A DNA stretch of 38,282 nt from a virus. Its lineage: Duplodnaviria; Caudoviricetes. This document shows, one piece after another, positions 132 to 36,908 of this stretch (position 1 is the first letter of the stretch; the number at the start of each line of letters is the position of its first letter). The DNA is taken from positions 1 to 38,282 of IMG/VR virus record IMGVR_UViG_3300012942_000024. The stretch is one strand, 5' to 3'. A program made the translations under genes and the position numbers. The notes under the pieces were generated by a model. It was given only the letters and a program-made list of their open reading frames with translations, was not told the origin of the DNA and made no database searches.

Positions 132-464
132 ATGAGCGACATTCAATACATCAACGGCCTGATCGTGAAAGCGCCTAACGAACGCGCGCCGGAGTACGTG
201 AAGGCGAAACTGTCCATCAAGCGTGCGGAGCTGATCGAGTGGCTGCAAGGTCAGCCTGGCGATTGGATTAACGCCGACGTGAAAGTGTCGCAGGGCGGCA
301 AGTGGTATTGCGCCGTGGATACGTGGAAGCCGAACAGCGGCCAGTCCGACCGTCCTGCCCAGCGCCAGGAATCGAAGCGCGAGGCGAGCTATGGCAATGG
401 CCCCGCGCCGGGTTTCGATGACGAGATCCCGTTTCATCCCATCCCGCGCCGGCAGTTGTGGTGA
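132..464 (+). CDS. Putative phage single-stranded DNA-binding protein
   Basis: 110 aa; follows ERF and exonuclease; flexible tail with an acidic FDDEIPF motif typical of SSB C-termini. Confidence 0.6.
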   Translation: MSDIQYINGLIVKAPNERAPEYVKAKLSIKRAELIEWLQGQPGDWINADVKVSQGGKWYCAVDTWKPNSGQSDRPAQRQESKREASYGNGPAPGFDDEIPFHPIPRRQLW

Positions 465-502
465 TGGGTTTGGCCGTCACCCGCGACGGCATGGAGAACG
501 AA

Positions 503-808
503 ATGAGCGACGAACCGAAATTGTGGGCGATGCACGTACCGGGGCCGGACGACGTGTTTGCGATGGCGAGTGAAGAAGCGGCGCACGCGGCCGTGGCCTA
601 GCACAACAAGGCCGTGGCCGAAATGGGGCTTGCCGAGCGCTTTGGCATGACGCCAGAGCAGGTGAGCGCCCGCGTGATCGAGTGGCCGCACAGCGCAGAG
701 TCGCACGCCGAATCACTGGCAAGCGGCGATCCGGATGTGATGGATACGACGAACGGTGGCGGCATTCCAGACAGCCTGTTCAACGCGCTGCACGGAACTG
801 ATGCATAA
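503..808 (+). pseudogene. Hypothetical protein interrupted by an in-frame TAG at 599-601
   Basis: GGAG RBS and ATG at 503 (MSDEPKLWAMHVPGPDD...AAVA*HNKAVAEMG...), in frame with track ORF 614..808. Confidence 0.65.
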
Positions 809-872
809 CACTGGAGGTAAGCCGTGAGAACGAGCGCAGCGAGTGAGCATCGGCTTGACCGACGAGTTAGCC
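803..872 (-). other. Integron attC site 1
   Basis: Minus strand: GGCTAAC-5nt-GGTCAAGC...GCTTACC-6nt-GTTATGC; imperfect palindrome with R''/L''/L'/R' layout. Confidence 0.85.
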
Positions 873-1126
873 GCGACTGGTGGGCGATTGAGGTGGCGGG
901 CTACGGCGGTTTTGCGTTTTACGGGACGGAAGACGAGGCCGAAGATATGCGCGTGCACAAAGCGCGGTGGGAGGGCGGCGTGGGCAGGAAGCGGAAGGCC
1001 GAACAGGACGACCCGATTGTGCTGAGGCAGATGGATTGGGTGAGACATGAAATTGAGTGCAAGTATCCGCGCAGCGGAGACAGAGAACGCGCAGAAACGG
1101 CTGCCGTTTTGACGGCTAACGATTAA
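824..1126 (+). CDS. Hypothetical cassette protein
   Basis: 100-aa ORF; GGAGG and GTG start lie inside attC1, stop lies inside attC2. Confidence 0.6.
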   Translation: MRTSAASEHRLDRRVSRDWWAIEVAGYGGFAFYGTEDEAEDMRVHKARWEGGVGRKRKAEQDDPIVLRQMDWVRHEIECKYPRSGDRERAETAAVLTAND

Positions 1127-1171
1127 GTTGAGCGGTGAGCGAAGCGAATCCGCTCGAACGCGGAGTTAGAC
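1114..1171 (-). other. Integron attC site 2
   Basis: Minus strand: GTCTAAC-TCCGC-GTTCGAGC...GCTCAAC-TTAATC-GTTAGCC. Confidence 0.88.
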
Positions 1172-1182
1172 GACAACCATGA

Positions 1183-1377
1183 TAGGCGTGAGAGGTGGAG
1201 ACTTGAGCAAGGCAAAAGCCCGGAGTGCTGTGCGTATCACGGTGCCCCGTAAGCAGGTTGGGGCGTATCCCCGGCCGAATCCGTTAAATGACCACGGAAA
1301 TCCGCGTTGGTGGTCAGCCGGGACCTGTATGGGCGGTGCGGAGTCTGGTTTGCTTGAGTCTCCACCTTTGACGCCTA
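1183..1377. ncRNA. Candidate structured non-coding RNA filling one cassette
   Basis: 1183-1210 pairs with 1350-1377 (~28 bp, G-U pairs, one mismatch); internal stems GCCCC/GGGGC, CCCGGC/GCCGGG and TGACCAC/GTGGTCA; only a weak ORF. Confidence 0.55.
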
Positions 1378-1429
1378 ACGACTGAATTCAGCGGCGCCGA
1401 TAGGCGTCCGCTGGAATGACTAGTTGGGC
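1373..1429 (-). other. Integron attC site 3
   Basis: Minus strand: GCCCAAC-TAGTC-ATTCCAGC GGACGCCTATCGGCGCC GCTGAAT-TCAGTC-GTTAGGC. Confidence 0.9.
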
Positions 1430-1457
1430 GTTTTGGCGACCGATTGGAGAATTGGAA

Positions 1458-1703
1458 ATGCAAAACATACTGATGAAGTTTGACCCTGCGACCGGCGAAG
1501 AAAGGCCGTACCCGAGCCATGCGGCGCAATGGCGCGAATGGCACGGAGGAACGGCATGGCTTTTCGATCCTTGGACGGGGCGGCGCCGCGATGCGCGAGA
1601 CGTAGGTGGCGACGTACACGGTCTGCTGATTGTGCCCGCCGGAACGCTCGGCATGGACATGGGCGGTGGTTGCTCGGAGAAAGACAATGTCGCGTGCGCT
1701 TGA
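1458..1703 (+). CDS. Hypothetical phage protein (Trp-rich)
   Basis: GGAG RBS, ATG at 1458; MQNILMKFDPATGEERPYPSHAAQWREWHG... Confidence 0.7.
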   Translation: MQNILMKFDPATGEERPYPSHAAQWREWHGGTAWLFDPWTGRRRDARDVGGDVHGLLIVPAGTLGMDMGGGCSEKDNVACA

Positions 1704-2319
1704 TGTGGTGACGCTGACCGGCGAGGAATACGACGACCTCATGGAATGCAAAGAGATGGTCGCCTCACTACTAGCCCAGTTGAGCGCCGCGAAAGACCGA
1801 ATTGCCGAATTGGCGCCAGTTGCTGGAATGGACTTGCGGGAAACGATGCAGCGCATGCTGACACGCATGGAGGAAACAGACCGCTGGCCTGCGATATGCG
1901 ACGAGGCGCGGGCCGTCCTGTCGCTGGCGAATGATGCCACCAGGGAGCCTGCCGCCTACCTGTGGGGCGGCTGCCTCTGGCGCACGGACGAAATGGGGCG
2001 CGGCAGACCTGGGGCAGTCGAACTGTATCGAGCGCAAACGCCGCTGACCGATGCCGACATTACCGCATTGCTTCCGATATGGCAGCAGGGATCATGGACG
2101 CTGCCAGACTACGGCAGATGGGTAGCGCGGGCCGTCGAGCGGGCGCACGGGATCAAGACATCGCACAACCTATGCCTATCCTGCGGGCACAGCATCGATG
2201 CCCACGACAGGCAATACGGCTGCGCAGAAGACGGGTGCGATTGTGAGACGCCCAACGCCGAGGATCACGCGCGGCGTAGCCGTCGCGTGGATTCTCTTGT
2301 TGGTCCTGACGGAGATTGA
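1687..2319 (+). CDS. Hypothetical mosaic phage accessory protein with a C-terminal Cys/His cluster
   Basis: ATG at 1687 after GGAG; REPAAY and WVARAVERAHGI segments; CxxCGHxxxxH...C motif; reads through attC4. Confidence 0.65.
   Translation: MSRALDVVTLTGEEYDDLMECKEMVASLLAQLSAAKDRIAELAPVAGMDLRETMQRMLTRMEETDRWPAICDEARAVLSLANDATREPAAYLWGGCLWRTDEMGRGRPGAVELYRAQTPLTDADITALLPIWQQGSWTLPDYGRWVARAVERAHGIKTSHNLCLSCGHSIDAHDRQYGCAEDGCDCETPNAEDHARRSRRVDSLVGPDGD
2250..2305 (-). other. Integron attC site 4
   Basis: Minus strand: GACCAAC-AAGAG-AATCCACG CGACGGCTACGCCGCG CGTGATC-CTCGGC-GTTGGGC. Confidence 0.8.
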
Positions 2320-2321
2320 CA

Positions 2322-2537
2322 ATGGAACCGACGCGAGAAGTTTGCATCCACGGCCGTCACTTGGTCCGAGAGTATTACTGGGCCGGCGAATACCCGGTCT
2401 ACCTTGACCAGCAACTGCAAGACGGCAAGACATTCGAGCAGGTCTGCCGTGAGGTCCGTGATACATCGCGAATGATGCCGCCCAACACCCAAGTTCAGCC
2501 GCGCCGCGAAGCGGCATCGGCTGCAACGCGTTGTTAG
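2322..2537 (+). CDS. Hypothetical cassette protein
   Basis: GGAG RBS, ATG at 2322; reads through attC5. Confidence 0.6.
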   Translation: MEPTREVCIHGRHLVREYYWAGEYPVYLDQQLQDGKTFEQVCREVRDTSRMMPPNTQVQPRREAASAATRC

Positions 2538-2539
2538 CC
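2480..2539 (-). other. Integron attC site 5
   Basis: Minus strand: GGCTAAC-AACGC-GTTGCAGC CGATGCCGCTTCGCGGCGCG GCTGAAC-TTGGGT-GTTGGGC; 60 bp. Confidence 0.92.
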
Positions 2540-2569
2540 TGCATTGCATAGGAGATTGACGCCATTATT

Positions 2570-2803
2570 TTGGACACGAAGTATGACGAGGAAGTGAATG
2601 GGTATGTGGTTGGGCGGTATCAGTTGATTTGCTCGCTGCGGTACGACGGCAGAAAGCAAGGCTCGACGATTTACGCCGAGACGGAAGAGGAAGCGGTGCG
2701 CATTGCTGAGGACAGGAAGGCGGAAATTATTCGAGAGTGCGGCGCGGCTGCTTGTGACATTTTCCCGCTCGACGCATGGGAGCTTCGCGTTCATGCGGGC
2801 TAA
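2570..2803 (+). CDS. Hypothetical cassette protein (start uncertain)
   Basis: 77-aa ORF whose TAA stop is within the attC6 core GGCTAAC. Confidence 0.55.
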   Translation: MDTKYDEEVNGYVVGRYQLICSLRYDGRKQGSTIYAETEEEAVRIAEDRKAEIIRECGAAACDIFPLDAWELRVHAG

Positions 2804-2857
2804 CACCGGAGATAAGCCGCGTAGCGAAGCTACGTCGGCTTGATTGACTAGTTATGC
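2798..2857 (-). other. Integron attC site 6
   Basis: Minus strand: GCATAAC-TAGTC-AATCAAGC CGACGTAGCTTCGCTACGCG GCTTATC-TCCGGT-GTTAGCC. Confidence 0.9.
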
Positions 2858-2876
2858 GGCAAAACAGGAGTACGAA

Positions 2877-3134
2877 ATGCTCAGGAACAAAGTAGGCGGC
2901 ATGGCGATGGTGACCCCGTGGCCGGAAGCGTCGGAGGCAATCAAGCGGCACGCCGGGACGGTTGTTGTGTGCGTTGAGCATGGCCCTTGTGGGCTTGGCG
3001 GTGACGCATGGACGACCTCTCCGACCCTGCGCTGCGAGCATGATCTTGTGATCGCTTGGGACGATCAGGACTTGCTGCCGCTTGGCGACAACCCCGATGA
3101 AGCCGAGGTCGCTCGCGGCGCGGTTGCCGCATAA
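2877..3134 (+). CDS. Hypothetical cassette protein
   Basis: AGGAG RBS, ATG at 2877; stop within GCATAAC at 3129-3135. Confidence 0.6.
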   Translation: MLRNKVGGMAMVTPWPEASEAIKRHAGTVVVCVEHGPCGLGGDAWTTSPTLRCEHDLVIAWDDQDLLPLGDNPDEAEVARGAVAA

Positions 3135-3190
3135 CACGTAATAGACCCCAAAAAGCGCGATATGCACCTTCGTGCTACGCGGCAGTTAAT
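3129..3190 (-). other. attI-like (non-palindromic) recombination boundary at the head of the cassette array
   Basis: Minus strand ...GGGGTCTATTACGT-GTTATGC; core matches the R'' of attC6 over 12 bp; no attC hairpin; AT-richer intergenic region. Confidence 0.5.
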
Positions 3191-3271
3191 CGCTGCAAAT
3201 GCATGTCCGCAAAGGCAATGCGCGGGGATTATCCGCAATAAACAAAATGGGAAAGACGACAAAGGGAAATC

Positions 3272-3622
3272 ATGAAAACCGCTGACATGCTCCCCAAGCT
3301 CGAAGCGTGGAAAGCCGCCATGGTCGAGATGGACAGGCAGTACGACGCGCTTAACGCGCTGCTCGGCCTATCGCCGGATTCGCCCTTCCCGCGTGCGATT
3401 CAAGATTTGCAGGCGGTCGCCACCGAAGCCACGGCCGAAACCGTGGGCGACGCCGGCGGCTGGCTGTCCTACTACTGGCTGGAATGCAACATGGGCGCGG
3501 GCATGCTCAGCGGCCGGCACGGCAGCGCGACCATCGGTGGCAAGGAGTACCCGATCCGCACGCTCAAGCAACTGGCGCGGGTGATCGTGGCGGACAACAG
3601 GCGGGAGTCGGTGGAATCGTGA
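3272..3622 (+). CDS. Hypothetical phage protein
   Basis: 116-aa ORF with RBS, overlapping the xis start (GTGA). Confidence 0.75.
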   Translation: MKTADMLPKLEAWKAAMVEMDRQYDALNALLGLSPDSPFPRAIQDLQAVATEATAETVGDAGGWLSYYWLECNMGAGMLSGRHGSATIGGKEYPIRTLKQLARVIVADNRRESVES

Positions 3623-3822
3623 GCCTTTGCCTCACCCGCGCTGAGTTGGCCGAACTGACCCGCACGAAGCTCAAGGCGGGCCAGGCCGCGTTCCTGCGCT
3701 CGAATGGCATCCGGCACTATGTGGACGCCCACGGCTGGCCGGTGGTGACCCGGGCGGCAGTTGAAGGCGAGCAGGACACGGAGCAAGCTTCCACCTCCTG
3801 GAAGCCGAACAAGGCCGCTTGA
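3619..3822 (+). CDS. xis: Excisionase-like protein (DUF4224-like)
   Basis: 67 aa, LTRAELAELT...QAAFLRSNGIRHYVDAHGWPVV; directly upstream of the integrase. Confidence 0.75.
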   Translation: MSLCLTRAELAELTRTKLKAGQAAFLRSNGIRHYVDAHGWPVVTRAAVEGEQDTEQASTSWKPNKAA

Positions 3823-3824
3823 CG

Positions 3825-4634
3825 ATGGGACGTCGCCCCGCTCGACCTGATGCCGTGCCGCGCCTGCGCGTGCGCAAGAAGCCATCCGGCACGATCTGCT
3901 ACTACTACGACCACGGCGGCAAGCCACGGCGCGAGGAGCCTCTTGGCAGCGACTACGGGCTGGCCATCAAACGCTGGGCTGAGATCGAGCGCGCCGGAGC
4001 GGAGAAGGCGGCGGCCGTCATCACGTTCCGCTACGTGGCCGATCGCTACCGCGCCATCGTCATCCCGACGAAAGCGCCCCGCACGCAGCTCGACAACGCG
4101 AAGGAGTTGAAGCAGCTGATCGCGTTCTTCGATGATCCACCCTGCCCGCTGGAGGCCATCGAGCCGCAGCATGTGCGGCAATACCTCGCGTGGCGCAGCC
4201 CGAAGGCGAAAATCCGCGCGAACCGGGAAAAAGCACTCCTGTCGCACATATGGAACTGGGCGCGAGGCGAAGGCTACACCGCGCTGGCCAACCCCTGCGC
4301 CGGCATCAAGGGCAACAAGGAAGCCGGACGGGATGTGTACATCGAGGATGACGTGTTCGCGGCCGTCTGGCGGCTCGCCGGTGGTCCGTTGCGCGACGCG
4401 ATGGACCTGGCCTACCTGACCGGCCAACGGGTGGCCGATACACTCCGAATGGATCAGCGCGACATGCGCGACGGGTTCCTGCACGTCAAGCAGGGCAAGA
4501 CGGGCACAAAACGGCGCATCGAGGTCACGGGCGATCTGGCCGCATTGATCGAGCGTATCGCAACGCTTGCGATTCCGTCGAATCGTGGAAGGCCCGCGCA
4601 CTTGAGGCCGAAGAAACGGCGGAGCGTTTGGTAG
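3825..4634 (+). pseudogene. int: Tyrosine integrase, C-terminally truncated
   Basis: Arm-binding and core-binding domains, LAYLTGQR (catalytic Arg) and QGKTG (Lys) are present; HxxR, His/Trp and Tyr motifs are absent; similarity is lost at ~4561. Confidence 0.85.
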
Positions 4635-4921
4635 CAGCGATGAATGACCTTACCGGCCCGACATTCATGGGTGAGCCGGTCTTGCCGAAGCCTGCAAAGC
4701 ACTGCGACCGTGGCCCGGATGACTGCGTTCAGTGCAGTGTGTTGGCCGGAACTTTCGCGGTGAAATCCGCCGCCCCGTCCGCGCCCGAGGGTGGGCATAT
4801 TGACCGTGCGCGGTTTGAGAAAGCCCCTTGCTATCTGTGCGGCTACAACGGCCCCGGGTACTACCAGCCGGGAACACATTCGTGCGCAGCCAAGTACCAC
4901 GCCACCCAGCCCGAGGAATGA
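4562..4921 (+). CDS. Hypothetical protein, probably 5'-truncated; C-terminal CYLCGY...H-C zinc-like motif
   Basis: Frame stays open upstream of track ORF 4628 (NACDSVESWKARALEAEETAERL...) back to the integrase breakpoint. Confidence 0.55.
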   Translation, partial: NACDSVESWKARALEAEETAERLVAAMNDLTGPTFMGEPVLPKPAKHCDRGPDDCVQCSVLAGTFAVKSAAPSAPEGGHIDRARFEKAPCYLCGYNGPGYYQPGTHSCAAKYHATQPEE

Positions 4922-5205
4922 CGATGCCCATGAATGAAGAAGTGCGGAAGGCGCTTGATCGTGTGCAAATCATCTGCGACGAGTGGGCCGACATTCCCAT
5001 AGCCGACTGGCACACGCTCAACAACGAACTAACCCGCCTTACCGAAATCGCCGATTCCGTCGATCCACTGGTCGTGCGGCTGGGTGAGGTGACGACGCGG
5101 CTTGAGGCGGCGGATGCGCTGCTGCGGGAAGTGTATGACCACGGCGAGAACATGGCGCTACACGAGAAAATCGCCGCCCACCTTTCGGAGAACACCCATG
5201 GCTGA
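4918..5205 (+). CDS. Hypothetical phage protein
   Basis: ATGA overlap with the upstream ORF; helical 95 aa. Confidence 0.65.
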   Translation: MTMPMNEEVRKALDRVQIICDEWADIPIADWHTLNNELTRLTEIADSVDPLVVRLGEVTTRLEAADALLREVYDHGENMALHEKIAAHLSENTHG

Positions 5206-7137: not shown

Positions 7138-9357
7138 TCATGCTGACTCCAGCGCGTCGAGACGTGCCGCGAAGCCGCGGGCCAGGAACAGCAGCAGTTC
7201 GTCGTGCCTGAAGCTGTAGCGGTCACCTGCAGGCTGGTATTCCTGCACCACATCGTCGGTCTCGGGATCGCGCTGCTCCGGCGTCTCCGGCCACTCGTCG
7301 AAGCAGATGAACCCGTAACGGAACGGATCGAGGCTGTGATCCTGCATGATCTGGATCGCTCGCTGCACCGTCAGGCCGGCATGGTGGCGTGCGTTCCCAG
7401 CACCCTTGTCAGCGATACTGGCAAGCCACTGGTACGTGCCGATGGCGCGGGCAAGTTCGGCGGCGGCGGCAAGCTCCGCCGTTGTCAGCGGATCGACGGC
7501 GGTTTTCTCCCGCGCGTCGCTTGTGTTGATTACTCCGGTAGCAGCGTAGACCACTGACCATCGTTTGGATGACGAGCCCAGCGTCGCGGCGTTATCCGTA
7601 CCGGGGTCAACTACGGTTGGCGTCACGCTCAACATCGTGGGCTGGCCCGATGCTGCGCTTGTGAGTCGCAGCCCATTACCTGTCGTCAGGCCGCGTATCT
7701 GTCCGCCCGTTGCGTTACTGCTATCCGTTTGCAAGAGGATGAAGCTTTCAGCACCACCGCTTCGGTTCAAAAAAACACCAGCCACTGGTCCAGCAACTTC
7801 AAATTGATAGTTTGCAGCAGGCGCACCAATACCCACCCGGCCACTTACTTCGTTGACGTACAGCGTCGTACCGAAATTGACGGTGCTGTCATCGTTGATG
7901 AAGACCAGATCGAGGTCGCCTGATGCGTTATGCGAGGAAAGCACCATACCGGTGTAGGGCGACGCAGCACCGCGCCTCGACTTAATGGAAGCCCCTCTTC
8001 CAGCGATGTCCGTCCCCACCTCATAACAGACGGCTGTCGTCCCGGCTGTGTTATTGCCGGGAAACGTGCCTATGCCGCCGCCGATGATGGTGTTTCCGAC
8101 CGTCTTATTGCCACGGACAAACTGTGCCGCTGTGCCGGCCGTAATGGCTGGCTCTTTTGTGGCAAGCGCAGCCGCCTGCGCCGTGCTCACCGGCTTGTTC
8201 GCATCGCTGGTGTTGTCGACGTTGCCGAGGCCGACAGCCGCCTTGTTGAGCGTCTGCCACGACTTGTCGCCGCGCCAGTATTGGGTAGCGGTGCCGGCGG
8301 TGATCGCGGGTTCAGCATCCGTGATGCCATACCCGGCCAACGTCGTCGGCTTGCTGCCGATCTGTGCGAAGGTGTAATCGCCCGATGCGGGCGTGACGGA
8401 CCCGGTGCGTCCATTGAAGCTGGTGACGCCTCCGGTGGGCACCAACAACTCCTGCCAGTTCGCCAGCGTCGAGGCTGGTTCTGCGGTCAGGATCAGCGAC
8501 TGCGACAGGTCCGTGCGCACCGCGACGTCGCCCTGCTGGCAGTCGAGCGCCAGCATGGCGGCCTGAGTGTTAACCACGAATGTTTCGGTGATCGCCAGCG
8601 CCGGGAGTTGGCCAGAGTCGAGCTTGGCGTCAGCGCCAAGCGTGGCCACACCGTTGGCTGCGGCCTTCTCGCTGCTGTCGATCTTGAGCGCCAGCGCATC
8701 GAACACCGCATCGCCCGACGGGCTGTGATCCGTATCGCCATCGGTGATGCCGGAGACGACAACTGCGTCCTGCGCACGCTCATCGGTGAAATAGAGGTTG
8801 TCGCCTTCAGCAAGGTCCGTCGTCGTCGCGGCACTCGTCCCGCTGATGCGGCCCTTGGCGTCGCGCGTGATCTTGACCAGCGCCGCGCCGGTACCGCTAT
8901 TGGCGAGGTCAGCAAGATCGAGCGTTACGTTGTCATCCGCGTCCATCGACGGGGCGAAGTTGTCGGAGAATGCCGCCCATCCTTTCGTTGCTCCATCGGG
9001 CGAGCCGTAGAAACTCACGCCGGGCACGGTATCCACGTCGCCATCGAGCGAGATAAAGCGATTCTGCGAGAGGTCGCCGCCGCCTTGGATAGACCCCAGC
9101 CCGGTTATCGTGATGGACTTGTCGGCCTTGGCGTCGATCTGCCCGGAAATATCGGGGATGCCTTCGCCTGAGTCCGGATCACCGCCAAGCGCCGCGATCA
9201 CTAGCGCGAGGTTCTTCACCAGCTTGCTGATCGTGTTGATCTGGCCCTGCAGGTTCGAAACCAGCGCGTTGAAGAAGGTGTAGAAAGCGCGTGTCGGCCG
9301 GCCGGTCTGGTCAACCAGTGGGGCTCCGGACTTGGGAAGGATGCTGTTGTCGGCCAT
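7138..9357 (-). CDS. Tail fibre/spike with C-terminal intramolecular chaperone (peptidase S74-like)
   Basis: TSDAREKT cleavage motif, YSFRHDELLLF...RLDALE end, GLGNVDNTSDANKPVS fibre motif; start at MADNSILP. Confidence 0.88.
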   Translation of the reverse strand: MADNSILPKSGAPLVDQTGRPTRAFYTFFNALVSNLQGQINTISKLVKNLALVIAALGGDPDSGEGIPDISGQIDAKADKSITITGLGSIQGGGDLSQNRFISLDGDVDTVPGVSFYGSPDGATKGWAAFSDNFAPSMDADDNVTLDLADLANSGTGAALVKITRDAKGRISGTSAATTTDLAEGDNLYFTDERAQDAVVVSGITDGDTDHSPSGDAVFDALALKIDSSEKAAANGVATLGADAKLDSGQLPALAITETFVVNTQAAMLALDCQQGDVAVRTDLSQSLILTAEPASTLANWQELLVPTGGVTSFNGRTGSVTPASGDYTFAQIGSKPTTLAGYGITDAEPAITAGTATQYWRGDKSWQTLNKAAVGLGNVDNTSDANKPVSTAQAAALATKEPAITAGTAAQFVRGNKTVGNTIIGGGIGTFPGNNTAGTTAVCYEVGTDIAGRGASIKSRRGAASPYTGMVLSSHNASGDLDLVFINDDSTVNFGTTLYVNEVSGRVGIGAPAANYQFEVAGPVAGVFLNRSGGAESFILLQTDSSNATGGQIRGLTTGNGLRLTSAASGQPTMLSVTPTVVDPGTDNAATLGSSSKRWSVVYAATGVINTSDAREKTAVDPLTTAELAAAAELARAIGTYQWLASIADKGAGNARHHAGLTVQRAIQIMQDHSLDPFRYGFICFDEWPETPEQRDPETDDVVQEYQPAGDRYSFRHDELLLFLARGFAARLDALESA

Positions 9358-30152: not shown

Positions 30153-30406
30153 GCGTGCTTCCTCGCGCGCTTGGCGTCCATATCATCAAGGCGGATCAGT
30201 TGGTCCGCGTCCGTTCCATCGAATGCCTGTTGCTTGCCCATCGTCTTGCCTGCCTCGCTGAAATAAAGGGGTTTCACGCCGGGACCGAACACGGCGCGGA
30301 AGTCGTCGATGATTGACGTGCAGCCGGGGAAGTCGCGGCGGATTTGGTCGCGCCGGCTTTCGTCCTTGCGCACGTTGGCGCGGATCATTTCCACAACATC
30401 GGTCAT
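30149..30406 (-). CDS. Hypothetical protein
   Basis: FP....IDDFRAVFG..VK.LY.SE.G motif; follows the helicase. Confidence 0.7.
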   Translation of the reverse strand: MTDVVEMIRANVRKDESRRDQIRRDFPGCTSIIDDFRAVFGPGVKPLYFSEAGKTMGKQQAFDGTDADQLIRLDDMDAKRARKHA

Positions 30407-31746
30407 GGCAAGTCCCCCTCGAAACGGCTTAGGAACCGCATGGTTTCGGGAACCCATACGGTCTTGATTTCGCCGCACGGGCCGTGCCTGTTCTTTTCAA
30501 CGCTGATAATTGCTTCGCTGTCGTCGGCGTTGTCGTCAGCCGTGCCGGGGCGGAACAAGGTCAGGATCTGGTCGGCCTCTTTCTCGATCTCGCTGGAATC
30601 GGACAAGTCGCCCATGCCGGGCTGGCGCCCATCCGCCTGCCGTCCGACCTGCGCCAACGAGATCACGGGTATTTCCAGATCGCGCGCCAGGTTCTTGAGT
30701 CCGCGCACCACCTCACCCACCCTCTCCGCCTTGTTGGCGCTCTGCCGGGTTTGCGACGCCTCGATGCGCTGCACGTAATCGACAAACAGGGCACGAATGC
30801 CGTTTTGCTGCTTCCATTTGCGCGCCATGCGCGACACGTCGGCGATGGTCGGCGAGCTACGGTCGTAGATCATGCAAGTCCGCTCGCACAATTCGCCCAC
30901 CGCGTTTTCCAGCTTGTGCAGGTCTTGCGGCTCGAACCTTCCGTTACGCATCCGCTCGGCTGGAACATGCGACTTGATCGACATGACGCGGGCGCCTATT
31001 TGCTGCGCGGGCTGTTCGGCGGAAATGATCCCGGACGGCAACGCGCAGGCCGTGGCGAAGTTCAGCAGGATGGCCGTTTTCCCCTGCGACGGTCGTGCTC
31101 CAATCACGATCAGGTCGGAGTCGTGCCAGCCGCCAAGGATTCGATCCAGATCAACCAGCCCCGATGCAATACCGGGGATACGTCCGCCCAATTCGCGGGC
31201 GCGCTCCGCTTCGGCGTAAGCCATCGTCATTGCTTGGCGCAACGTGTATTCGCTGCGCGTCTCGACCTTTTGCAACGCCATCAAGTCCGTGATGCCACGG
31301 TCCACCAGTTCGACACCGTTGGACTGCCCGGCATAGGCCGACTCGACCAACTGTGTTGCCTGGTCGATGACTTGCCGCATGACGGACTTCTCGCGGACGA
31401 TTTGGGCATACGCGATGATGTTGGCCGCGCTCGGGATCGTATTCGCCAGTTCGATGCAGTAGGCCGCGCCCCCCATCATGTCGCCTAGCCCGTTGCTGTC
31501 GAACCAGTCGCCCAGCGTCACGGCATCGCAAGGCTGGCCACGCGCAGACAATTCCATGATCGCCCGCCAGATCAGTCGATGATCCTTGCGGTAGAAATCC
31601 GCCTCGCTGATTCGGTCGGCGATCTTGTCCAGAGCATCCGGGGCCAACATCAGGCCGCCCAACACCGACTGCTCGGCGTCGATGGAGTGCGGCGGGACGC
31701 GGATGCCCAGGTCGCGGGCCTCAGCCATGCGAACGACGGCGTTCAC
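30403..31746 (-). CDS. dnaB: Replicative DNA helicase (DnaB family)
   Basis: PPHSIDAEQSVLGGL, GARPSQGKT, FVDYVQ, LAQ, IEKEAD and KNRHG motifs. Confidence 0.95.
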   Translation of the reverse strand: MNAVVRMAEARDLGIRVPPHSIDAEQSVLGGLMLAPDALDKIADRISEADFYRKDHRLIWRAIMELSARGQPCDAVTLGDWFDSNGLGDMMGGAAYCIELANTIPSAANIIAYAQIVREKSVMRQVIDQATQLVESAYAGQSNGVELVDRGITDLMALQKVETRSEYTLRQAMTMAYAEAERARELGGRIPGIASGLVDLDRILGGWHDSDLIVIGARPSQGKTAILLNFATACALPSGIISAEQPAQQIGARVMSIKSHVPAERMRNGRFEPQDLHKLENAVGELCERTCMIYDRSSPTIADVSRMARKWKQQNGIRALFVDYVQRIEASQTRQSANKAERVGEVVRGLKNLARDLEIPVISLAQVGRQADGRQPGMGDLSDSSEIEKEADQILTLFRPGTADDNADDSEAIISVEKNRHGPCGEIKTVWVPETMRFLSRFEGDLP

Positions 31747-32510
31747 TTCGGCAGCCCGTAGTTGGTGGAGCTGCCTTCGCCGAGTTGCTTGCGGCGCTTC
31801 GTCGGCTGCGGCGTGACCGATCCGTTACCCGCCACCCATTCGGCCTTGAAGCCACGCCACCCGCGCTCGCAGCACATCGTCAAGGCGGCAGTCAGCGTCA
31901 AGCCGGCCTTTCCAGCCTCTCGGCGGATGCCGTCCATCGCGGTTGTGGTAATCGGAGCGCGGAGTTTCTGGCGCAGCTGCTTGAAGTCGTGAACGACTTG
32001 CTCGGGGATGCCATCGAAGAGTTCGCCGTCAGGCGTAGTCTTTTGCTTTTGTTCTTCTCTCTTATCTTCTCTCTTATCTAGTCCGCTTTCATTCCGAGAT
32101 TTGTCCGCATCGTTTGCGGACAGATTGCGGACAGGTTGCGGACATTTCCGACTGTCCCTTTTGCGCTTTTGATCCTCGGCGCGACGCTTGGCCGACTGGC
32201 CGTTATGCTCGTCAAACTCAGGCAGCGTAAGGGTTTCGCGGCCATCGAAGGACAGCCAATCGACCGCAATCATTGCCTCAGCGAAGCCGGGCCAACCGAT
32301 CACATGATCCAAAAGATCAGGCGTGTAGCCGAACAGAACCCCATCGGTCGAATGAGTGTCGAACACCGACCACGCCGCATGAAGTCCGCCGATTACCCGA
32401 AACTTGTCCGTTGCATTCTGGACGTCATGCGGACGCATTGCGGACAAAATGCGGACAACTTTCGGATGCGATTGAAGCTCTGACCGCATCTTGATCCAGT
32501 CGCCAGCCAT
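31743..32510 (-). CDS. Phage replication initiator (O-like)
   Basis: MAGDWIKMR...HPKV, FDEHNGQSAKRRA and ERGWRGFKAEW motifs; upstream of dnaB; contains iterons. Confidence 0.85.
   Translation of the reverse strand: MAGDWIKMRSELQSHPKVVRILSAMRPHDVQNATDKFRVIGGLHAAWSVFDTHSTDGVLFGYTPDLLDHVIGWPGFAEAMIAVDWLSFDGRETLTLPEFDEHNGQSAKRRAEDQKRKRDSRKCPQPVRNLSANDADKSRNESGLDKREDKREEQKQKTTPDGELFDGIPEQVVHDFKQLRQKLRAPITTTAMDGIRREAGKAGLTLTAALTMCCERGWRGFKAEWVAGNGSVTPQPTKRRKQLGEGSSTNYGLPK
32041..32144. repeat. Putative replication origin: TTGCGGACA x3 (11-bp period), one inverted copy and an adjacent pyrimidine/AT tract
   Basis: Copies at 32114, 32125 and 32136; inverted copy at 32102; T/C tract at 32041-32080. 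Confidence 0.7.
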
Positions 32511-32825
32511 CAGCGCACCCCCATCCGCCGCTCCATCACCGCAACCTCTTCCCGGCTGCGCTGCGCAATGAGCGCTGTCAGGCGGCGCCACGCGTGCACG
32601 GCTGCATCACGGTCGCCTGCCTCCATCGCGGCGACGTAGACACGTCCAGCGACGCGCATGGAGGCATGGCGGAACATGGCGCTCACGGCCGCGCCTCCCG
32701 CTTTGCATCCTCGTCATTGCGCGCCTGCCGATTGGCCTCGATAGCCTCGCGGCCGAAACGGGCGACGGCTTGCCAGCCTTCGCTCAGCGTGAATTCCAGC
32801 GGGTCGTTTTCGCCGTGGTCGGTGA

Positions 32826-33331: not shown

Positions 33332-33918
33332 ATGAGAAAGCACGTTGAGATATTGGCCGAGCTGCTCGAAAAGAAGGTGGGCAAGCAAGGAGCCATAGCC
33401 AAGGCGCTCGGTTACAAGTCCGCTTCGGCCGTAGGTATGATGTTGCGCGGGGAACGCGGCATGAGCCGGAAGGTGTTACAGGAGGCGCGTATCCCTGCGA
33501 ATCCTGCGAAATCCGCGAATCAGGGGCGGCAAAGGGCGGCCGATTCGCAAGATTCGCAAGATTCGCAACGCGTGGAAGTTGTAAATCACATTTCGACCCC
33601 TGCGGTATCGGCACCGCTGTCACCGCTTGCTGACACCCTGAAACCGTTACGCGCGCACCTGCTGGCGCTGGCGACTGCCGAGGGAGTCGACCCCGCCAAC
33701 GTTCACCGGCTGCACGATGCCGACCTTGCCGGCTGCAAATGTGCGAGCTGGCCGGAATCACCATTGTCTATCTGGCATCCATCTCGGATGACTTGAAAGT
33801 GGCTAAGCGCAAAGAGTCCGTGGAAGCCGCCGCCATCATGGACGACGCCACGCCGGAAGAACTGGCTGTGCTGATGCCACTTCGGCGCGCCTATCGGAAA
33901 TCGAAAACCGATAGTTAG
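33332..33918 (+). pseudogene. cI: CI-like XRE repressor split by a 254-bp insertion
   Basis: N-part MRKHV...KQGAIAKALGYKSASAVGMMLRGERGMSRKVLQ ends at 33481; C-part QMCELAGITIVYL...KTDS* (33736-33918) is in another frame; removing 254 bp restores one ORF. Confidence 0.8.
33495..33568. repeat. Inverted arrays of 9-bp repeats (3 x ~CTGCGAATC, 20-bp spacer, 3 x GATTCGCAA)
   Basis: Directly visible inside the cI insertion. Confidence 0.85.
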
Positions 33919-36704: not shown

Positions 36705-36749
36705 CCCCTACGCCAGCCAACGCTAAACGGCTGGCAGATGTTCGATTTA

Positions 36750-36908
36750 TGGCAGTGAATGCGCAGGCTGATGCGCTGGCCGCAGAGAGCGGGAGAAGTA
36801 GGCAGCGTCACCGAAAGCACCGGTCGAAATGAAGGCTCCTGACTGACGCATTGAGCCGACTGGGATACCCCCGCCAAGCCGGAGATCAGCACCGGCCACT
36901 GCCACCCA
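36750..36908 (+). ncRNA. tRNA-like structured RNA with a long central arm and a possible kissing loop
   Basis: TGGCAGTG/CACTGCCA closing stem; GCGCA-GGCTGA-TGCGC and GCCGG-AGATCAGCA-CCGGC arms with complementary loops; intergenic. Confidence 0.7.

Follow-up and report, generated by a model that had tools for sequence, protein, structure and literature searches.

The window analysed here, meaning the whole stretch of 38,282 nt (IMG/VR virus record IMGVR_UViG_3300012942_000024, Caudoviricetes), is a complete phage genome with direct terminal repeats at its ends. It carries, ahead of its excisionase (xis) and phage integrase (int) genes, an array of six attC sites, the recombination sites of integron cassettes, in which the cassette genes are inverted with respect to their attC, and which ends on a site that we take, by position and sequence, as an attI of the type present in integrons of the Rhodanobacteraceae. 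We consider it probable that this is an integrase-less platform, consisting of a host-type attI and six attC cassettes with inverted genes, in which the integron integrase (IntI) of the host likely inserts, removes and reorders cassettes.

A first-pass annotation, made from the sequence alone, had listed six imperfect palindromes. A geometry scan of the whole window on both strands found exactly these six sites and no others, each of them having the attC geometry on the minus strand. The hairpin order R''-L''-loop-L'-R', with spacers of 5 and 6 nt and an extra L'' base, was present in 6/6 sites, and in all of them the 8-nt box and the 5-nt spacer were on the right side, as in an attC on the minus strand. 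The layout described by the first-pass annotation was thus correct, but the boxes deviate from the strict RYYYAAC/GTTRRRY consensus at several positions and the extra base of site 5 is, on the top strand, G and not C. Twenty dinucleotide shuffles yielded 0-2 scattered geometry matches per orientation. Since attC sites found no match in Rfam (none at gathering score in the window, none at E up to 5 in 400-3400), we trained a covariance model of our own on 43 attC sites, bacterial and class 1, with 90% of the cells paired. Run on both strands, this model gave the six sites minus-strand scores of 36.0-62.6 bits; plus-strand scores at these places peaked at 8.1, and the remainder of the window did not exceed 10.8. 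The level of these scores is partly circular, because sites 1 and 6 had supplied the pattern by which part of the training loci were retrieved, but the strand relative to the genes is not. The polarity call is validated by the class 1 integron of phage P1, where the geometry scan placed five sites on the strand that carries the annotated genes. Between site 6 and a class 1 cassette attC of P1, where the annotated genes are on the other strand, the identity is 81%.

No IntI is encoded in the genome, as the first-pass annotation had maintained: the TIGR02249 model, run over the complete genome, matched only the phage integrase, with 12.9 bits against a cut-off of 265, and tblastn with IntI gave no match in the genome. 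With no fewer than two attC sites and no intI nearby, the element is by definition a CALIN (cluster of attC sites lacking integron integrase) and not a complete integron. A Pc promoter reading the cassette genes from attI is also missing; no sigma-70 consensus was found in 400-3900, and such a promoter would read the genes antisense, because they point towards attI. In a typical cassette the open reading frame (ORF) lies upstream of its attC and on the same strand, whereas the five coding cassettes of the window are on the opposite strand and the order along the phage operon is hairpin first, gene second. The definition of CALIN elements (Cury et al. 2016, 10.1101/030866) ignores attI and gene direction, while the phage element appears to keep an attI and has every clear gene inverted. 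IntI acting in trans has been proposed for CALINs in the same work. Since 3129-3168 matches the attI of the host family, we regard the element as an integrase-less integron and not only as an attC cluster, and it would work like an integron whose enzyme is supplied from outside.

The match at 3129-3168 is a seventh half-site that the first-pass annotation had overlooked, describing the attC sites (correctly) but not the attI. The sequence to the right of the array led to a relative, a prophage (L181) of Rhodanobacter caeni JCM 16242 (Rhodanobacteraceae). Both share the order Erf, exonuclease, SSB-like gene, array, platform, gene without known function, xis and int, with backbone identities that are mostly 80-96% (67-73% in some blocks) and reach 96% over window positions 3132 to 4561. 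The prophage has five attC sites by the covariance model and no cassette in common with the window, and its 3/3 scored cassettes, plus the one proximal to attI, are inverted. Another contig of the same strain encodes IntI (499.7 bits) beside normally oriented cassettes. There, the sequence from the first cassette to intI reads core, six letters and TAGACCCCAAAA, the same as in the phage, with the motif 163 nt ahead of intI, and the likeness of the phage site to the attI of the host family extends over about 40 nt. A secondary attG site was tried as an explanation of the right end and rejected, as the sequence matches the host attI. The nearest relative is the R. caeni prophage, and Rhodanobacter, or a relative of it, is a likelier host than Xanthomonas, which the first-pass annotation had brought up.

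The attI motif was found in 52/401 genomes of the family (a reversed control in 11), and IntI scored above the cut-off in 72/151. Among 32 bacterial motif loci, intI starts 163-164 nt behind the motif in nine and 208 nt behind a partial match in one; 15 have attC ahead, and 12 have neither within the stretch examined. Rhodanobacteraceae chromosomes commonly contain additional attI copies that lack intI (L437, G001:C2:167805 and others), with up to four per genome, some of them heading arrays. In viral contigs the motif occurs at 75 loci, 15 of them (several being near-duplicates) with attC, and all 30 matches in these are in matching polarity, the attC being ahead of the motif in 14 loci. The genes behind the motif differ among viral loci (excisionase, terminase and others). 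Exact searches for the right-hand site gave, with 16 nt, four matches, all unrelated, and, with 18 nt, no viral and 46 metagenome matches, among which there was one true relative (L389); a further 18-nt match (L393) was identical to the window and left out. Two loci, L340 (G084:C8) and L389, carry inverted arrays that end in nearly the attI of the window and are followed by different genes; G084 also encodes IntI. Altogether, the phage array resembles the chromosomal integrons of Rhodanobacteraceae and the class 1 integrons in its attC family and in cassette ends that match as in former circles, and those of Rhodanobacteraceae (R. caeni) also in the attI motif, but differs from them by the lack of intI, by genes on the bottom strand and by start and stop codons inside att sites.

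Within an array each attC is a chimera, and it is the two ends of one cassette that are expected to be complementary. Comparing the right box of each site with the left box of the next, 22/24 variable bases matched, against 15/24 within sites; 8 of 5040 permutations were as good, and the sixth match requires the half-site 3129-3135. Cassette 3 was found whole (878/878 nt) at 98.5-99.5% identity in three viral contigs (L002, L003 and L004) with unrelated flanks. In these contigs, and likewise in L005, L010 and L024, the AAC at 1377 marks, exactly or to within a few bases, the point where identity begins; in the three whole copies it runs to the AAC of 2254-2256, and the cassette has thus been exchanged between phages with the precision of a cassette. 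Since the hairpin moves with the downstream gene of the plus strand, the crossover is fixed in the R' box of the minus strand. The junctions themselves, compared between contigs, place it in the left box on the plus strand independently of the hairpin geometry. A crossover in the R' box (G/TT), as in attC sites, is what both the cassette 3 junctions and the matching of cassette ends indicate by comparison. The first gene of cassette 3 occurs at 25 loci, about half of them distant and mostly with no attC nearby. The body of cassette 3 was found in 0/401 genomes of the host order, a search that had no positive control and is therefore weak.

Sequencing runs agree with a mobile cassette 3. In three of the four runs examined (24 were listed), from three studies, two parts of the array, cassette 3 and the cassette 5 body, were the centres of cover, plus short attC matches, with loose ends at 1369-1375, 2256-2258 and 2804; the relatives of cassette 5 span 2531-2804, stopping at the site 6 AAC. 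One contig, from run X19, joins position 2256 to six letters and then the TAGACCCC box of attI, so that cassette 3, fourth from attI in the window, is first in X19. This is an RNA run assembled into contigs, informative on neither strand nor expression. Cassette insertion at secondary attG sites, which are arbitrary genomic sites, is known (10.1101/2022.09.11.507474) and would explain why cassette 3 abuts non-att DNA in L002 and L004, whereas the right end of the array in the window is a conserved attI. In L004 (4233-4250) cassette 3 ends on a minimal palindrome, with two R boxes four letters apart, which is possibly an attC with its middle deleted.

The polarity was surveyed with one attC pattern in two collections; the matches listed comprised 126 of about 170 viral and 167 of about 2,500 bacterial stretches, and the survey counts that follow hold among these. 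We applied a codon and ribosome-binding site (RBS) score of our own to the distinct attC-to-attC segments that were 100-1,500 nt long, loci with a single site yielding none. Viral cassettes were inverted in 91 cases, normal in none and unclear in 5 (47 loci), while bacterial ones were normal in 157, inverted in 20 and unclear in 56. Three of the 20 belonged to the R. caeni prophage, and most others were short, low-scoring ORFs. PHROG families matched 31 of the 91 viral cargo proteins, seven of the matched ones being DNA methyltransferases; for the bacterial proteins the count was 16 among the first 91 of 157, with no methyltransferase. No match at E 1e-5 was found between the 91 viral inverted and 177 bacterial cargo proteins, in a small sample of diverse cargo that gave only two matches among the viral proteins themselves. 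In this sample, therefore, the two cargo pools look separate, in line with the phage-specific pool that the first-pass annotation had suggested. One complete 37-kb phage (G738, locus L023) has six inverted attC and its own intI (7209-8231), followed by xis/int; this IntI is 61% identical to the C-terminal part of IntI1, and the cargo includes a protein with a PAPS-reductase domain. IntI was found in 0/5 other phage records with inverted arrays. A further viral contig (L035) carries an IntI-like gene and one attC among phage tail genes.

Table 1. Features of the array and its right flank (window coordinates).
Feature	Position	Strand	Remarks
attC 1	803..872	-	57.5 bits; distal site, moves with cassette 1
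Cassette 1 gene	824..1126	+	100 aa; start within attC 1, stop within attC 2
attC 2	1114..1171	-	41.4 bits
Cassette 2 body	1172..1379	+	Probable non-coding structured RNA; 28-nt terminal inverted repeat, internal hairpins
attC 3	1373..1429	-	59.5 bits
Cassette 3	1379..2256	+	attC 3 plus ORFs 1458-1703 and 1690-2319; mobile unit, whole in other phage contigs
attC 4	2250..2305	-	36.0 bits; second ORF of cassette 3 runs through it
Cassette 4 gene	2322..2537	+	71 aa; runs through attC 5
attC 5	2480..2539	-	58.3 bits; about 82% identical to class 1 attC sites
Cassette 5 gene	2564..2803	+	About 79 aa; start ATT here, ATG in relatives
attC 6	2798..2857	-	62.6 bits
Cassette 6 gene	2877..3134	+	85 aa; first position at attI; stop codon within attI core
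Putative attI, Rhodanobacteraceae type	3129..3168	-	Core, 6-nt spacer, TAGACCCC box, further likeness over about 40 nt; no intI behind
Backbone gene	3272..3622	+	In the place of intI in host integrons; 94% identical in R. caeni prophage
Excisionase and phage integrase (not IntI)	3619..4634	+	Integrase shortened at about 4561 relative to prophage copy

The first-pass annotation had placed small ORFs, all on the plus strand, between the sites (Table 1). This holds for four of the five attC-to-attC segments and for cassette 6, whose plus-strand protein is conserved (8 homologues, 58-88%), but cassette 2 has no clear ORF and cassette 3 has two. Genes and sites are interlocked: on the plus strand, attC 1 contains the stop codon of the upstream gene and, for the cassette 1 gene, both the RBS and the GTG start codon; the left boxes of site 1, site 6 and attI each enclose a stop codon, and ORFs read through sites 4 and 5, so that some C-termini vary with the neighbouring cassette. 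None of the cassette proteins of the window matched a PHROG or Pfam family, and none of the homologues found for them (159 and 8) was informatively named; the cassette 1 protein had no relative in viral contigs, and the protein at 3272 just three weak viral matches.

The body of cassette 2 is probably a non-coding structured RNA, as suggested by its predicted fold (z = -7.2), in which a long stem closes the structure and a CGTAT loop is common to two hairpins. A homologue in L413 (1805-2030) is 87% identical with two 1-nt gaps, and among 10 changed pairs 3 were broken, 1 fell in a gap and 6 were kept, one of the six because both partners had changed. In L413 the element closes an inverted array and has no attC to its left, and hence exists both as cassette and as flank. 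Neither Rfam nor the tRNA search matched this body, and no tRNA was found in the window. A 68-aa ORF was considered and is not favoured, given its weak score and the two 1-nt gaps in the homologue. Cassettes without ORF are known (PMC8876359).

By PHROG matches the genome runs from P22-like head genes through an initiator and a DnaB-like helicase (30403-32591), Erf-like and RecE-like genes and the array to the excisionase and integrase. The gene upstream of attC 1 (503-808) has an in-frame TAG at 599-601 and is not at this place in the R. caeni prophage; it may be a cassette that lost its attC, and a possible decayed attC at about 465-480, which would make it a seventh cassette, had an end match of 2/4. 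The identity of the integrase (3825-4634) to the 345-aa prophage integrase stops at about 4561, where the frame enters unrelated plus-strand genes (4640-5205); from this shortening, the phage may be unable to integrate. A likely repressor gene at 33332-33800, with no PHROG match, is seemingly split by unrelated sequence, about 250 nt long, in which there are short tandem repeats, and a non-coding region with hairpins ahead of the Erf-like gene (36720-36900) had no Rfam match at gathering score.

Phage attC clusters as such are known. Qi et al. 2023 (PMC9892861) described 17 phage CALINs, without intI and with methyltransferases among their cargo, in which IntI1 recombined 5/6 tested sites, and two attC sites of phage PH101 did so with IntI1 via the bottom strand. 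In the published examples that we checked, TJE1 (3 sites) was normal, whereas MW202573 (4 sites) and PH101 (2 sites located) were inverted. The parts of that paper available to us do not mention genes antisense to attC and name attI only for a Shewanella prophage; the present case goes beyond them by its host-matched attI and the cassette-precise exchange between phages. A 2026 review (PMC13492144) cites, on phage attC clusters, only Qi 2023 in the portion available, and in that of a preprint on Xanthomonas integrons (10.1101/2025.06.18.660453) the words 'orientation' and 'inverted' are absent. We found no description of an inverted phage cassette pool in a literature search that left subscription journals mostly outside. 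Thus, the parts and the phage attC clusters are known, and what is surprising, and well supported, is a pool that is strictly reversed and apparently separate and has an attI matching that of the host.

As the most plausible mechanism, we infer that a host IntI supplied in trans would take the folded bottom strand of a cassette, which is here the coding strand, and insert it at attI, and that new cassettes would enter at this end, adjoining xis/int. The orientation of attI against the early-left operon would be as if it had been captured with an intI facing along that operon, and G738 shows such an arrangement, its intI being in line with the operon. With attI so oriented, the phage would transcribe, presumably from its early-left promoter (PL), the gene only of those cassettes that carry it on the bottom strand of attC. 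Host cassettes of the ordinary kind, many of them coding for anti-phage systems (10.1101/2024.07.02.601686), would come to lie antisense to the operon and disappear. A fixed platform polarity, together with selection for expression from the phage operon, is the simplest explanation of the inversion, and insulation from host cassettes would be a side effect.

Several observations weigh against a host-served platform. No PL promoter consensus was found, and gene direction in the survey derives from our own codon score, checked only on P1 (4/4) and the window. The IntI of G738 means that the enzyme need not be that of the host, and the signs of decay (shortened integrase, TAG at 599, ATT start) that this copy may be idle. 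Since 22 of the 32 bacterial motif loci lack intI within 600 nt, the attI site also occurs alone in chromosomes, and 60 of the 75 viral motif loci had no attC found, probably being mostly chance matches. The run that is possibly the source of the window has no joint, in contigs that drop rare variants. Moreover, the first-pass annotation had expected gene-content differences among relatives to break at the core; cassette 3 did so, but L005 departs from it in mid-gene, L025 and L026 have the start of its gene without the attC 3 hairpin, and relatives of cassette 5 carry a different attC, so that other recombination also acts.

These off-core junctions, and the Erf-like and RecE-like genes just upstream of the array, would fit an array in which the attC sites are leftover short homology arms, used by the phage Erf and exonuclease to swap genes without any IntI today. 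We find this very improbable: in L002, L004 and X19 the end of cassette 3 is at AAC, and the flanks it meets there are no attC sites and share only the core, and the end-to-end match of the boxes, the kept attI and the strict polarity would be left unexplained. It is improbable, too, that the array was built by a phage-encoded IntI since lost and is now frozen or served only by co-infecting phages with IntI. G738 has the same order as the window (six inverted attC, then xis/int, with intI), and the gene at 3272 starts where intI would lie, but no intI was found within 600 nt behind the motif in any of the 75 viral loci (some contigs ending early) or in the five other inverted-array records, the attI of the window matches the host type and not the L023 site, and the near-identity of cassette 3 across unrelated phages points to recent traffic. 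That the palindromes are chance ones or terminators, in spite of intergenic hairpins being common in phages, has a negligible probability; the geometry scan, the end-to-end match and the covariance scores oppose it, ORFs run through several sites, only one of the six scored as terminator-like, and the attC model scores and the junctions have already refuted it.

A different account concerns the polarity only and is compatible with a host IntI: replication would select arrays with the attC bottom strand on the lagging template, where more folding would lead to more recombination. In the lambdoid layout the origin lies in the initiator gene, and such a layout, which would put the bottom strands on that template, would fit the window, where the operon of the array points away from the initiator and helicase genes. 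Bottom strands on the lagging template do recombine more often (PMC5371416). However, the fork direction is presumed, GC skew tracks the coding strand and is not independent, and replication alone does not account for 0 normal cassettes in 96. We regard it as rather unlikely to have set the polarity, and a replication effect may add to selection for expression.

Integrons are bacterial gene-capture systems that have lately been recognised also as stores of anti-phage genes. As a tentative extension, which we would sooner doubt than accept, the phage arrays may form a mirror-image integron economy, in which a hijacked host attI and the host enzyme serve to put early-operon phage genes into cassettes traded among unrelated phages, the polarity keeps the pool orthogonal, and the forms with and without attC are stages in cassette genesis. 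Genes and a structured RNA that occur both with and without attC bear on how cassettes are first made. In R. caeni JCM 16242, a single named strain, IntI and a normal integron occur together with a prophage that has the inverted array and shares the attI, and therefore the source of the enzyme, the polarity and the separation of the pools are directly testable. If the reading is true, host defence cassettes delivered by IntI would be silent in the phage and phage cassettes silent in host integrons. A phage pool with reversed polarity would add a second cassette economy parallel to the bacterial one, and phage mosaicism would have in it a site-specific source.

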